From: a virus | Taxonomy: Duplodnaviria; Heunggongvirae; Uroviricota; Caudoviricetes | Direction: 5' to 3' (one strand) | Length of the DNA: 12,988 nt | IMG/VR virus record: IMGVR_UViG_2778261465_000007 | Shown here: positions 8,002 to 12,123 of the stretch, one piece after another | How positions within the stretch are numbered: position 1 is the first letter of the stretch | Layout of the letters: every line of letters starts with the position of its first letter | Position numbers and translations under genes: made by a program | The notes under the pieces: generated by a model | Told to the model about the DNA's origin: nothing | Databases searched by the model: none | Seen by the model: only the letters and a program-made list of their open reading frames with translations

Positions 8002-8385
8002 TTACGCTCTCCTTAACTGGATAGAGTAAACTGATGCGGAAGGATCTACACTTGCTGTAATTACCTCGTATCGTTGTAACTGCCTTGATACAGGATCATA
8101 AATCTCAATAATATGGTCGACAGCTGGTTTATCCGTAACCTCGCATACCAGAGCGGTTAATTTAAGGTCACCATGCAAAATATTAATCCCATCAATTCTG
8201 CCCAGCTTATAACGTGTCAACACGCCTCGCCCGGTATAGATTGCGGTGGATTCGCCGCCAGTTTCCGTCACAGGATCCCAGTGCCGGTGCGTAACGTAAG
8301 AACCAGAAAAATCACTCACGGCGTCCGCTAAATCCTCATCAAAAGCAGCGGCAACCTCTGACTGAATCTCTTCACGAAGCCCCAT
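8002..8385 (-). CDS. head-tail joining (head closure/adaptor) protein (127 aa)
   Basis: Position in the coupled head-tail cluster; TAATG overlap with the upstream gene; no diagnostic motif recognised. Confidence 0.45.
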   Translation of the reverse strand: MGLREEIQSEVAAAFDEDLADAVSDFSGSYVTHRHWDPVTETGGESTAIYTGRGVLTRYKLGRIDGINILHGDLKLTALVCEVTDKPAVDHIIEIYDPVSRQLQRYEVITASVDPSASVYSIQLRRA

Positions 8386-8780
8386 TATCCCCCCCTCACA
8401 ACCCTGACTTGTGAGCGACTAAGTCCGTACGGTTTCAGCAGTGCTATCGCAAGCTGTAAATCGGGTTCAAGCAATGCAGTGCTGTTTGCTGGCAACTCAG
8501 AAAATGATTTCGATACACTGACCCCGTCAGCCGACACGGCTTTACTGATAACAACGCCAGAATCATTTTTCTGCTGAAACAACTTACCGAATGAGGCAAT
8601 TCTGGCTGCATATGCTCCCGCAAGTTTTACCTCTTCCGGAATACGGGATGGGTTAATTTTCAGGTTGAAGCCATTAAGCCAGGCATTAGCCATTAAAACA
8701 GCTTTATTTTTAGCGTTCTCACTCGTCCAGGCGTTCCCAAACGCATTATCAACGTCATCACAGGTCACGTAAGTGATCAT
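8385..8780 (-). CDS. head-tail connector protein, gp6-like (131 aa)
   Basis: First gene after the capsid gene; N-terminal MITYVTCDDV...AWL pattern resembles the gp6-like head-tail connector family; AGGGG Shine-Dalgarno. Confidence 0.5.
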   Translation of the reverse strand: MITYVTCDDVDNAFGNAWTSENAKNKAVLMANAWLNGFNLKINPSRIPEEVKLAGAYAARIASFGKLFQQKNDSGVVISKAVSADGVSVSKSFSELPANSTALLEPDLQLAIALLKPYGLSRSQVRVVRGG

Positions 8781-8783
8781 GTG

Positions 8784-8960
8784 TTACCCCTGAGTTTTCC
8801 AGCCCATAGCCTTCCAGTTGTCAACTTCATCAGGATGAACATTAGCGATAGTTGGTGCGCCGGGAAACATCTGATAATCGGTCACCATAACCACTAACTC
8901 AATTTGCGTTTTTTGTGCGGCTTCACGCTGTGCTCTTTGCTCTTTAGTTAATCCGGCCAT
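8784..8960 (-). CDS. unannotated small ORF, 58 aa (MAGLTKEQRAQREAAQKTQIELVVMVTDYQMFPGAPTIANVHPDEVDNWKAMGWKTQG), translationally coupled to the connector gene
   Basis: ATG at 8960..8958 preceded by a GGGGGG run; TAA at 8786..8784, 3 nt before the connector ATG; absent from the ORF track, apparently because it is under the size cut-off. Confidence 0.4.
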   Translation of the reverse strand: MAGLTKEQRAQREAAQKTQIELVVMVTDYQMFPGAPTIANVHPDEVDNWKAMGWKTQG

Positions 8961-8970
8961 ATGCCCCCCA

Positions 8971-8997
8971 TTAAAAATGGGGCCGAAGCCCCGTTTG
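8971..8997 (-). terminator. intrinsic terminator/attenuator: GGGGC-UUCG-GCCCC hairpin followed by AUUUUUAA (minus strand), about 100 nt downstream of the capsid gene
   Basis: 5-bp all-GC stem closing a UUCG tetraloop (8979-8992) with a run of 5 U immediately 3' on the minus-strand transcript; on the plus strand the same hairpin is followed by GUUUGAAUGUUU. Confidence 0.5.
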
Positions 8998-9092
8998 AAT
9001 GTTTAACCAAGAATCAGACAACCATGTGCCGGCTTCACTGATGAAACACCCCATGCCAGTCCAACTTCATAGCGCACCTGGCGATACTGACG

Positions 9093-10142
9093 TTACAGTG
9101 CAATCTGGAACGTAATCCCTGAAATCGGGTCCGTAACATTCATTACATCATCAGCATTATCGCCACCTTCCGGCATTGCCGGAGTACGGGATGCCAGCAG
9201 AAACGCGTTGCGATCAAACGCCATATTTGCAGTAAAGGCCCCAACAACTGTGATGGCAGTATCATCGGCCAGATCCTGACGCAGTCCGGGCGCTGCAAGA
9301 GTAATCAGATTGCTGGTCGCTGCTGCCACAACATACTGATTCGGATCACCAGCGAACGTAACAATCTGACCTGCAGAAATACTCCCCGAACCAGTATCAA
9401 TGGAAATAAGAACATCGCCTTCTTTTTTCTCTCCATTCACGAGATAACCAGTTGCAGCAACCTTTGGCGCTCGTTTCACACCTGCCGAACTGTGAATATT
9501 GAATCCCTCCAGACGCCCCAACACGCCCTCACGCAGTAGCTGTTCAGTGCCGGATTCATTCACTTTAAACAATACAGACTGTTTTCCGCGCAAATTAGCA
9601 ATGGCAGTGGAGCCAAGCACCATCTGCAGATCGGTTGTCGGTGCGCCGTTATCCTCCAGAACCTGACGAGCCAGAGCAGCATCAGAAAGATCATCTTTAA
9701 CACCAAACGGCGTTGTCCCTGCGGTTCCCACGGCGCGGGAAGCACCGAAATACAACGCACCAAGATCAGCCTCAACCTCGTTTGCAAGGGCGCGAAAAGC
9801 CTGCTTGAACTGATCAGCCAGAATGGTGTTGTAAGTCCCTGAAGGGCCAAGAGCCAGTTGTTCTTCACCATTCCATTTAACCGGTGCCATTTTGGATTTA
9901 GTAATTTTTACATCAACAGTGCCAATATTTTGATCACCGGTATTCGGAGCTGACGGCCCCGGTACGATATCTTCGGTTTTCGCCTCAGGCGCAACTGGCG
10001 CGGTTACCGTCTGATCTTTTGCTGCGGCGTCAGCTTTTGCGTTTTTTGCTACCGCAGGGATAAAACCTACCTGCTCACGGGATACAACATCCAGGGCGGT
10101 ATAAATAGTCGGGATCAACCCGGTCAGGGTATTTCCAGCCAT
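9093..10142 (-). CDS. putative major capsid protein (349 aa from ATG 10142; the ORF-track N-terminal extension to 10235 is rejected)
   Basis: First large gene of the virion block, directly upstream of the head-tail joining genes; AAGGAA Shine-Dalgarno 8 nt upstream of MAGNTLTGL...; assignment from position and size, not a recognised motif. Confidence 0.55.
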   Translation of the reverse strand: MAGNTLTGLIPTIYTALDVVSREQVGFIPAVAKNAKADAAAKDQTVTAPVAPEAKTEDIVPGPSAPNTGDQNIGTVDVKITKSKMAPVKWNGEEQLALGPSGTYNTILADQFKQAFRALANEVEADLGALYFGASRAVGTAGTTPFGVKDDLSDAALARQVLEDNGAPTTDLQMVLGSTAIANLRGKQSVLFKVNESGTEQLLREGVLGRLEGFNIHSSAGVKRAPKVAATGYLVNGEKKEGDVLISIDTGSGSISAGQIVTFAGDPNQYVVAAATSNLITLAAPGLRQDLADDTAITVVGAFTANMAFDRNAFLLASRTPAMPEGGDNADDVMNVTDPISGITFQIAL

Positions 10143-10240
10143 AATTAAATATTCCTTAAAAATTTGCGTAATTGTGAATAGATGGAGTAATGAGCTATCC
10201 AGCCCTGACACCAGCTCCCATCCGGAAGCTGACAAATGTG

Positions 10241-10477
10241 TTAATCAACGATTGTGACCGGAACAGAATCCATTTTGAGCATTTCAGCCGCCATAACACG
10301 ACCGTGACCCGCAATAATTTCGCCCTTTTCGTCAATCAGCACCGGATTAGTCCAGCCGAATTGCTTAATACTTTCTACCAGTTGTGCCACCTGCTCAGTA
10401 CTGTGCGTCCTGGCGTTGTGCGCATACGGTGACAATTCTTGTAATGGGCGATAGACTATCTTTAATTTCTCGCTCAT
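10241..10477 (-). CDS. ynaK: ParB-like nuclease-domain protein (78 aa), probably a truncated domain
   Basis: ParB/Srx N-terminal-domain signature (PYAHNARTHS ... IIAGHGR); sits between trkG and the structural genes as ynaK does in Rac. Confidence 0.55.
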   Translation of the reverse strand: MSEKLKIVYRPLQELSPYAHNARTHSTEQVAQLVESIKQFGWTNPVLIDEKGEIIAGHGRVMAAEMLKMDSVPVTIVD

Positions 10478-10496
10478 ACAGCCTTGCTTTATGAAT

Positions 10497-10528
10497 AAAA
10501 CGCACCCCAGCAGCCAGTGCTACTGGGG
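10497..10528 (-). terminator. putative intrinsic terminator downstream of trkG: CCCCAG...CUGGGG hairpin with inner stem, then UGCGUUUUAUU (minus strand)
   Basis: 6-bp GC-rich outer stem (10505-10510 / 10523-10528) plus 3-bp inner stem and tetraloop; the U-tract starts 4 nt after the stem, so only moderate. Confidence 0.35.
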
Positions 10529-10614
10529 ACGGAGGTGTTGCTGGTAAAGTTAGGTATTGGATCAATGAGTGAGTCAACATAATATTAAACTCACAATTAT
10601 AAATCAGCCATATA

Positions 10615-12072
10615 TTAGGAGCGCCAAAAAAAACCTGAAAACAATATAATAACAGGATAAATTTCAAGGCGACCAAGAATCATAGCTATGCACATTAAAC
10701 ATTTTGCAATGTCATTAAGCACTCCGAATGACGATGCAGTAGCCCCAAAACCTAATCCCATATTATTAATACATGCAGCCACTGTTGCAAATGATGTAAG
10801 AAAATCATATCCCATACCATTTAACACCAGTATAAAAAACACCGTAAAGAGAGTATAAAGAAAAAAGAAACTCCATACAGACCTCATTACACGATCTGTA
10901 ACTATCTTCCCTCCTACATTTACACTCAACAACGCTCTGGGATGAGAAAGCTGATTTATCTCGTGTTTGCTTTGTTTGAAAAGTATAAGAAATCGAAGTG
11001 ACTTAATTCCACCACAAGTTGAACCTATACATCCCCCAAAGAAACTTGACAACAGCAAAAACACTATCGTGTGCGTGGGCCAACTTGCATAATCCTGCGT
11101 AGCTAAACCATTATCAGTGAGCATGGAGCTGGCAAGAAAAAACGAATGAATAAAACTTCCATGCAAGTCATACATACCTATATGCCAGACCTGGAAAGAG
11201 GTAACAATGATCACCCCTAAGGCTATTAACAGAAAGAAACGAAGTTCAATATCTCTGATTAAAGGTTTTATCGTTTTCCTGCTAATAACAATATACCAAA
11301 GAGTGAAGTTGAAAGCCGATAGCAGGGAAAAAGAACCAGCCACCAGCTCAACCAAATAGTTATTAAAATATCCGATACTCTCGCTATGAGTTGAGAAACC
11401 ACCAAGCGAAACTGTGGAAATCCCGTGACAAATAGCATCAAACAAAGGCATTCCTGCAAGTCTATAACAGACAATACAAGCAATACCTAATAAAGAATAA
11501 GTTATCCACAGTGTCCGTGACGTATCGGCCAGGCGGGGAGTGAGTTTGTCATCCTTAAATGGCCCCGGCATTTCTGACTGATAAAGCTTTGCACCACCAA
11601 TACCCAATAATGGCAATACAGCAACCGCCAGAACAATAACTCCTAAACCACCTATAAAATTTAACTGTGACCGATAGTACAAATATGCCCGAGGTAATGA
11701 ACTAACATCATCAATTACAGTTGCTCCTGTTGTTGTTATTCCAGAAACCCCTTCAAACAGAGCATCAATGAACGTTAAATTAAGTTCTGAGTCAATCCAT
11801 AAAGGGAATGCACTAATAACAGAAAACAAAATCCAAAACATTACAATTATAATAAACCCATCACGGGTACGTAATTGAATGCCAGATTTCTTAGTTGTAT
11901 ACCACGCTCCGCCACCAATGCAAAAAAATATAACGAAAGTTATAAAGAAAACAAACAGGCTTTTTTCTTTATAAAACAATGCTACAACCATTGGTGGCAA
12001 CATTGAAAGACTATAGAGCCAAACCAGGAACCCACACATATGAGTAACAACTCTTACATGAGATGTATTCAT
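10615..12072 (-). CDS. trkG: TrkH/TrkG-family potassium uptake membrane protein (485 aa from ATG 12072; alternative TTG at 12090 has a better Shine-Dalgarno)
   Basis: Polytopic membrane protein with repeated glycine-rich selectivity-filter-like motifs (GITTTGATV, GCIGSTCGGIK, NMGLGFG); markedly AT-rich compared with flanking phage genes; position right after Rz/Rz1 as trkG in Rac. Confidence 0.9.
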   Translation of the reverse strand: MNTSHVRVVTHMCGFLVWLYSLSMLPPMVVALFYKEKSLFVFFITFVIFFCIGGGAWYTTKKSGIQLRTRDGFIIIVMFWILFSVISAFPLWIDSELNLTFIDALFEGVSGITTTGATVIDDVSSLPRAYLYYRSQLNFIGGLGVIVLAVAVLPLLGIGGAKLYQSEMPGPFKDDKLTPRLADTSRTLWITYSLLGIACIVCYRLAGMPLFDAICHGISTVSLGGFSTHSESIGYFNNYLVELVAGSFSLLSAFNFTLWYIVISRKTIKPLIRDIELRFFLLIALGVIIVTSFQVWHIGMYDLHGSFIHSFFLASSMLTDNGLATQDYASWPTHTIVFLLLSSFFGGCIGSTCGGIKSLRFLILFKQSKHEINQLSHPRALLSVNVGGKIVTDRVMRSVWSFFFLYTLFTVFFILVLNGMGYDFLTSFATVAACINNMGLGFGATASSFGVLNDIAKCLMCIAMILGRLEIYPVIILFSGFFWRS

Positions 12073-12089
12073 ATCTAAATATTCTTTCA

Positions 12090-12123
12090 ATTATAACCAC
12101 CTTGCTGCAATATTATGATTATA
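12090..12123 (-). promoter_or_regulatory. candidate sigma70 promoter region for trkG: two TATAAT hexamers on the minus strand (12095..12090 and 12123..12118) in AT-rich DNA
   Basis: Perfect -10 hexamers read from the sequence; no good -35 at canonical spacing, so weak. Confidence 0.3.

Follow-up and report, generated by a model that had tools for sequence, protein, structure and literature searches.

The window analysed here, a stretch of 12,988 nucleotides (nt) from the virus record IMGVR_UViG_2778261465_000007, carries on its minus strand a 58-codon open reading frame (ORF) that is a genuine phage gene, conserved as part of the head-morphogenesis module in siphophages with a P22-coat-like capsid protein. 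The architecture of its product and its gene context suggest an FI-like DNA-packaging helper, and we put the probability that the small protein works like lambda gpFI, as an analogue in packaging and not as a detectable homologue, at roughly 40%. The ORF runs from an ATG at 8960-8958 to a TAA at 8786-8784; rereading of the sequence reproduces exactly the coordinates given in the initial annotation and its placement of the stop 3 nt before the ATG of the adaptor gene. The gene and its parts, with the evidence for each, are:

8784 to 8960, minus strand: small gene, 58 codons plus TAA, encoding MAGLTKEQRAQREAAQKTQIELVVMVTDYQMFPGAPTIANVHPDEVDNWKAMGWKTQG (phrog_1514 match, homologue clusters, and the ratio pN/pS of nonsynonymous to synonymous differences).
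8919 to 8960, minus strand: invariant basic N-terminal peptide MAGLTKEQRAQREA, codons 1-14 (alignment, pN/pS).
8904 to 8918, minus strand: linker remnant, codons 15-19 (alignment gap; tandem-repeat linkers in homologues).
8787 to 8903, minus strand: C-terminal mini-domain, codons 20-58 (AlphaFold2, AF2; conserved in the 79 representatives of 50%-identity clusters described below).

The length of the ORF is not significant in itself, because the window holds 87 ORFs of at least 40 amino acids (aa), and the case for a gene therefore rests on conservation. A word-indexed search found homologues in 417 clusters at 90% identity, from Escherichia, Salmonella, Citrobacter, Klebsiella, Enterobacter, Raoultella, and other genera, and an exhaustive phmmer search gave 79 representatives of 50%-identity clusters. 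Selection was assessed with Nei-Gojobori counts pooled over 22 distinct enterobacterial sequences. Codons 1-14 have a pS of 0.55 and a pN of 0.04 (pN/pS 0.078), and the last 37 codons, corresponding to the C-terminal module (C-module), have a pN/pS of 0.37. In four of the five other reading frames pN/pS is greater than 1.2, with the antisense frame that shares third positions at 0.46; the pooled pairwise counts lack phylogenetic independence, yet the frames still stand clearly apart. The initial annotation had proposed a genuine small protein-coding gene of uncharacterised function, to be checked by frame conservation and purifying selection; both are present, and the proposal is borne out. 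That an ORF of this length is not rare by chance would suit an ORF without a gene's function, but this explanation is refuted by the pN/pS values, with the PHROG match and homologue clusters also against it, and its probability is practically nil.

As an ORF the gene is not new, being already catalogued and listed as a hypothetical protein. It had been called unannotated, which is correct for the ORF track available to the initial annotation, from which it is missing, but not for public records, which annotate it as WP_000908084.1, HK639_07, and phrog_1514. The window protein is identical to RefSeq WP_000908084.1 ("hypothetical protein") except at residue 58, which is G here and E in relatives, and 501 bp around the ORF are present in 757 of 5,426 complete E. 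coli genomes. Ten GenBank "phage" records annotate the gene, namely Salmonella phage SPF_0923 and nine vB_EcoS records that are in-silico prophages of clinical isolates; the counterpart in Escherichia phage HK639 is gp07 (YP_004934037.1), which is 62% identical to the window protein. The match to the PHROG 1514 profile is full-length (E=1.4e-42; residues 1-57 against profile positions 1-57 of 58), and none of these database listings assigns a function. Scans of the 58-aa protein against Pfam (even at E<=10), NCBIfam, and the defence-system models of PADLOC (E<=1) gave no matches. With the gene annotated in hundreds of genomes and catalogued in PHROGs, its description as an ORF adds nothing, and the interest lies in the function of an uncharacterised family that is conserved from enterobacterial prophages to cyanophages.

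The homologues have two conserved ends and a variable middle. In an alignment of 27 diverse homologues the N-peptide MAGLTKEQRAQR is invariant or near-invariant, and AF2 places a helix at residues 6-13 with low confidence. Only residues 21-58 are folded confidently (predicted local distance difference test, pLDDT, about 90), in the order beta-beta-alpha-beta; this C-module has the core LVxMVxD..FPGxP..AxVHPDEVxNWxAxGW, and the mini-domain of about 38 residues has no match in Pfam, in a profile search of PDB sequences, or by fold. The linker between the ends ranges from 0 to about 140 residues among homologues, is made of in-frame tandem repeats such as (QQEQ)n, (QQDQ)n, (APQ)n, (PQE)n, or polyQ, and is almost absent from the window protein. 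An Enterobacter hormaechei locus (L027, 2611-2997) has 32.2 copies of the 12-nt unit CAGCAGGAACAG at 100% identity, other loci have units of 9 nt (APQ or PQE), 6 nt (EQ), or 3 nt (polyQ), and repeat number is the sole difference between some otherwise identical proteins. Length of the linker is hypervariable in this locus and in many of the loci L019-L205, with the frame never broken, and complete proteins with the N-terminal motif have 57 to 197 residues (median, 83). In a Runella locus, whose neighbouring genes have no PHROG matches, the N-peptide is joined to a different C-terminal region.

Upstream of the small gene lie the capsid gene and a short spacer with the following features:

9003 to 10142, minus strand: P22-coat-like major capsid gene (phrog_283), a pseudogene here (family match; "internal stop" flagged in E. 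coli VE-T9 by the Prokaryotic Genome Annotation Pipeline, PGAP).
9093 to 9095, minus strand: premature TAA in the capsid gene, where relatives have TAT, encoding Tyr (comparison with relatives).
8973 to 8992, minus strand: terminator-like hairpin GGGGC-UUCG-GCCCC with AUUUUU after it, located past the capsid stop and ahead of the small gene.
8964 to 8969, minus strand: G-rich Shine-Dalgarno sequence (GGGGGG) of the small gene, GGAGG in relatives (sequence and comparison with relatives).

The ORF had been described as filling most of a 312-bp gap between the capsid and connector genes. This gap is an artefact that arises because of the TAT-to-TAA nonsense codon at 9095-9093, and the true spacer between the capsid and small genes is 42 nt (9002-8961). 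Past the premature stop the capsid frame continues for 30 further codons (RQYRQVRYEVGLAWGVSSVKPAHGCLILG) to a second TAA at 9005-9003, and the capsid coding sequences of related records extend to this second stop, with TAT at 9095-9093 in the other relatives compared (666R9, CP66-6, and HK639). The same premature TAA is present in VE-T9.

Among 67 distinct spacers in relatives, 62 have a perfect GC-rich stem, which is followed in 48 of them by a T-run; the stems have 26 different arms, and the loop is UUCG in most. Conservation of a UUCG hairpin and U-run at this place past the capsid gene extends across phyla, with stem sequences that differ. The hairpin may act as a leaky terminator or as an RNA-stabilising element that holds expression of the downstream genes lower than that of the capsid protein. 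Relatives also conserve the start codon and Shine-Dalgarno sequence of the small gene.

At its downstream end the small gene abuts the adaptor gene, with two features of note:

8385 to 8780, minus strand: head-tail adaptor Ad1 gene (phrog_493), 131 aa, starting 3 nt past the stop of the small gene.
8787 to 8792, minus strand: CAGGGG, with which the sense codons of the small gene end (the final two) and which doubles as the Shine-Dalgarno sequence of the adaptor gene; CAGGAG in relatives, hence E58G.

The bases CAC (8783-8781) separate the stop of the small gene from the adaptor ATG at 8780. In 178 of 197 scored loci the downstream start is 2-3 nt past the stop of the small gene, and in seven more the two genes overlap by 4 nt. 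The last codons of the small gene (GAG GAG, GAG GAA, or CAG GAG) form the Shine-Dalgarno sequence of the downstream gene whichever the adaptor family, and this gene varies among loci (among others, an Ad1 with 131-136 aa or an adaptor of the HK639 type with 160 aa). In the window, GGG (Gly58) at 8787-8789 stands in place of the GAG (Glu) of relatives, which changes the adaptor Shine-Dalgarno from GGAG to GGGG. Both the spacing and the GGAG supplied by the last codons are as expected for the translational coupling suggested in the initial annotation, and the small gene has this layout whichever adaptor comes next.

These junctions bear on the idea that the peptide itself is irrelevant, the ORF only delivering ribosomes to the adaptor start or being fused to the capsid protein by readthrough or frameshifting. 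The adaptor spacing is what coupling predicts, and the 42-nt spacer of the window is in frame with the capsid gene and lacks a further stop. However, with a spacer of 41 nt in HK639 and of 37 to 71 nt in other loci, no frame relation is maintained; a Shine-Dalgarno sequence and an ATG are conserved for the ORF itself, and purifying selection is strong at the amino acid level. We consider this explanation highly improbable, and a readthrough or frameshift fusion was rejected since neither spacer length nor frame is conserved.

A P22-coat-like capsid homologue lies immediately upstream in 194 of 200 C-module loci, and the other six begin at a contig end. Identity of these capsid proteins to that of the window falls to as low as 35%, and the same arrangement of capsid and small genes is found in Synechococcus phage Ssp-JY42 and Microcystis phage Me-ZS1. 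Because the capsid homologue is constant upstream and the adaptor family varies, the small gene travels with the head module and not with the adaptor, and the earlier emphasis on the connector is not supported. Loci that bear the motif and have long flanks are all enterobacterial (TerL 80-99% identical), and the distant ones have flanks of only 1.5-3 kb; comparison of the N-peptide with terminase or portal family is therefore confounded by phylogeny. One viral contig of enterobacterial type (L145, 8531-9664) encodes a capsid protein that is 74% identical to that of Me-ZS1 (L206, 2618-3766) and 52% identical to that of the window, and it retains the enterobacterial small protein; this is either a striking mosaicism or the host assignment is questionable.

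The gene order is also relevant to a role in head completion, at the neck, or inside the head, in which the protein would work alongside the portal or adaptor once packaging is over, or fasten the packaged DNA to the shell. Such a role would fit the tight juxtaposition of stop and start with the adaptor gene in almost every locus, and basic or DNA-binding ends could contact packaged DNA. Against this, the adaptor family changes between loci and the small protein stays constant, the neck set (Ad1, Hc1, Neck1, and tail terminator) is complete without it, and there is no similarity to gpW or adaptor folds, so that we regard the role as quite unlikely.

We favour instead the FI-like reading, in which the small protein would be a bipartite flexible tether. 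Docking on the capsid shell or procapsid would be the task of its C-terminal mini-domain (about 38 residues), a disordered linker free to vary in length would join this domain to the short basic N-peptide, and this peptide, as the tip, would engage DNA or the terminase-DNA complex, helping DNA-loaded terminase to find proheads as lambda gpFI does. Translational coupling would tie synthesis of the protein to that of the adaptor, and less of it than of the capsid protein would be required, as the putative leaky terminator hairpin upstream suggests. The tether architecture is proposed because the ends are conserved, the linker varies so widely, and AF2 folds only residues 21-58 with confidence; the FI-like function is proposed because gene position and spacer layout copy those of lambda E-FI.

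In relatives, HeH/SAP domains, AT-hook-like RGRP motifs, or Lys-rich tails stand in for the N-peptide. At the end away from the module, proteins of relatives in the slot between capsid and adaptor genes are repeatedly basic or DNA-binding in type, with true HeH (42.3 bits; cutoff, 28.9) and SAP (25.3 bits; cutoff, 23.9) domains, Lys/Ala/Pro-rich runs (AKKPAAKK), or AT-hook-like KRGRPRK. The window protein has no match to the Pfam HeH (PF12949) or SAP (PF02037) domains. A second, unrelated-looking small family occupies the slot in loci L208-L211, L237, L231, and L228, with the pattern TVRIV..G..IN..DFD..H.LF, an acidic linker, and a KRGRPRK tail.

Several observations weigh against an FI-like role. 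The N-peptide of the window protein is mildly basic and matches no DNA-binding domain, and docking of the C-module on the capsid we infer from gene linkage only. Two loci have the same small protein beside capsid proteins that are only 52% identical, and co-evolution is thus not tight; any docking must therefore recognise a conserved capsid surface. No papers turned up when the full text of the literature was searched for the peptide, WP_000908084, or phrog_1514. Finally, when 80 environmental viral loci were sampled by capsid homology only, 76 of them with enough downstream sequence, a clear C-module (E below 1e-3) was present in just 25, and about twenty passed directly from capsid to adaptor. 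About a dozen others have a shortened version (xVxMxKDGKxAxVHPsxVexYkxGGW), and about ten have the different small protein TVRIV..G..IN..DFD..H.LF in the slot. On this sampling the small gene is an accessory to, and not an obligate partner of, this capsid type.

Accessory status is also what might be expected of a capsid decoration or surface-display protein, whose mini-domain would be anchored on the mature shell with the linker and basic tip pointing outward, for stabilisation or for adhesion to anionic surfaces. The gene adjoins the capsid gene, as does the gene for gp39, a minor capsid protein in JBD30, and hypervariable in-frame repeat linkers are common in surface-exposed proteins. This role is nonetheless unlikely in our view, as the conserved terminator-like hairpin after the capsid gene argues for weaker expression than that of the capsid protein, relatives have partner modules of DNA-binding types (HeH/SAP and AT-hook-like), and there is no fold similarity to known decoration proteins.

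A broader proposal, which we offer tentatively and think possible though doubtful, is that the slot past P22-coat-like capsid genes encodes a widespread and unrecognised class of bipartite tethers that are non-homologous functional analogues of gpFI. In each member, 30-40 residues would form a mini-domain that docks on the capsid, a disordered linker would lengthen or shorten by in-frame tandem-repeat slippage, and the tip would be basic or DNA-binding, whether MAGLTKEQRAQR, HeH/SAP, AT-hook-like, or Lys-rich. If this is so, FI-type packaging chaperones would be general among tailed phages and not confined to lambda and its relatives, and the variable linker would be a natural system for testing the effect of tether length on terminase docking to the capsid.

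The window itself is a defective, decaying Rac-type cryptic prophage of E. coli. In descending coordinates, the direction of transcription, lysis genes, trkG (identified by Pfam TrkH, 484 bits), and a ParB_N fragment (ynaK) are followed directly by the capsid gene, after which come the small ORF, Ad1, Hc1, Neck1, and genes for the tail terminator, tube protein, and tape measure, with a ydaY-like gene before the last. In intact relatives the capsid gene is preceded by those for terminase, a portal (DUF4055), a minor head protein, and a scaffold (DUF6651); these are deleted here, and the ynaK fragment and trkG (10143-12090) abut the capsid gene. The prophage is defective because these head genes are lost and the capsid gene is broken, and here the small gene most likely survives as a relic. 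A query spanning trkG to the small ORF is at least 80% matched in at least 31 complete E. coli genomes, and one more deletion, in a different strain, has joined ynaK directly to the small ORF (P0121, 223 aa). The pattern resembles stepwise decay toward the Rac state of K-12. The practical outcome for the window is thus a correction: its capsid gene is nonsense-mutated within a decaying Rac-type prophage, and its small gene is probably a relic. Two other minus-strand elements were noted, a strong terminator-like hairpin (10 bp with 7 GC pairs, and a T-run) at 10505-10528, immediately downstream of trkG and before the ynaK fragment, and a full-length Rfam IS009 match (220.9 bits) at 1273-1471 in the tail-distal part of the prophage.

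Among known systems, the closest are the catalogued relatives themselves (PHROG 1514, WP_000908084.1, and HK639 gp07), with which the small gene shares a full-length match and the position between capsid and adaptor genes. The window copy differs from WP_000908084.1 only by the E58G change (GAG to GGG), and its prophage has lost the terminase, portal, and scaffold genes. The decoration proteins JBD30 gp39, T4 Soc, and lambda gpD are likewise small and accessory, with genes adjoining the capsid gene, but differ in that the window protein has no fold match to known decoration proteins, has a terminator-like hairpin upstream of its gene, and has relatives with DNA-binding-type tails. The search found no virion proteomics or cryo-electron microscopy (cryo-EM) data for Me-ZS1, the Synechococcus phages, or the vB_EcoS records.

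A further comparison is with lambda gpFI, which links DNA-loaded terminase to the major head protein and makes packaging about 200-fold more efficient in vitro, and the need for which can be overcome by suppressor mutations in the terminase or capsid genes (PMC13595911, PMC7889075). The proteins differ in length (132 aa for gpFI, 58 aa in the window), and the capsid families differ (lambda E versus P22-coat-like). Homology was sought and is not detected: the window protein does not match PF14000 (Packaging_FI) even at E<=10, where gpFI itself scores 199 bits; hhalign against gpFI gives probabilities of 0.2% with the single sequence and 0.4% with the family alignment, the gpFI alignment being shallow (members at least 86% identical); and there is no fold similarity to the C-terminal head-binding domain of gpFI (PDB 2LSM). 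Membership of the FI family was rejected on these results. By eye, the pattern RDEP...PG...V.......[WM]...G[WL] is common to both proteins, which we treat as a lead only.

The likeness to lambda lies in the layout. FI is located between E (capsid) and FII (head-tail joining), as the small gene is between capsid and adaptor genes. The lambda E-FI spacer (L047, 2162-2202) spans 41 nt and contains the hairpin GGCCC-UUCG-GGGCC, U-rich sequence, and the Shine-Dalgarno sequence GGAGGAG, and that of the window spans 42 nt with GGGGC-UUCG-GCCCC. Both products are small proteins in which a flexible linker joins an end that is helical or basic to a small folded one; gpFI has a sub-threshold SAP match in its N-terminal region, and relatives in the slot have true HeH/SAP domains. 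Lastly, gpFI is dispensable in the presence of suppressors, and the small gene is likewise an accessory across its capsid family.
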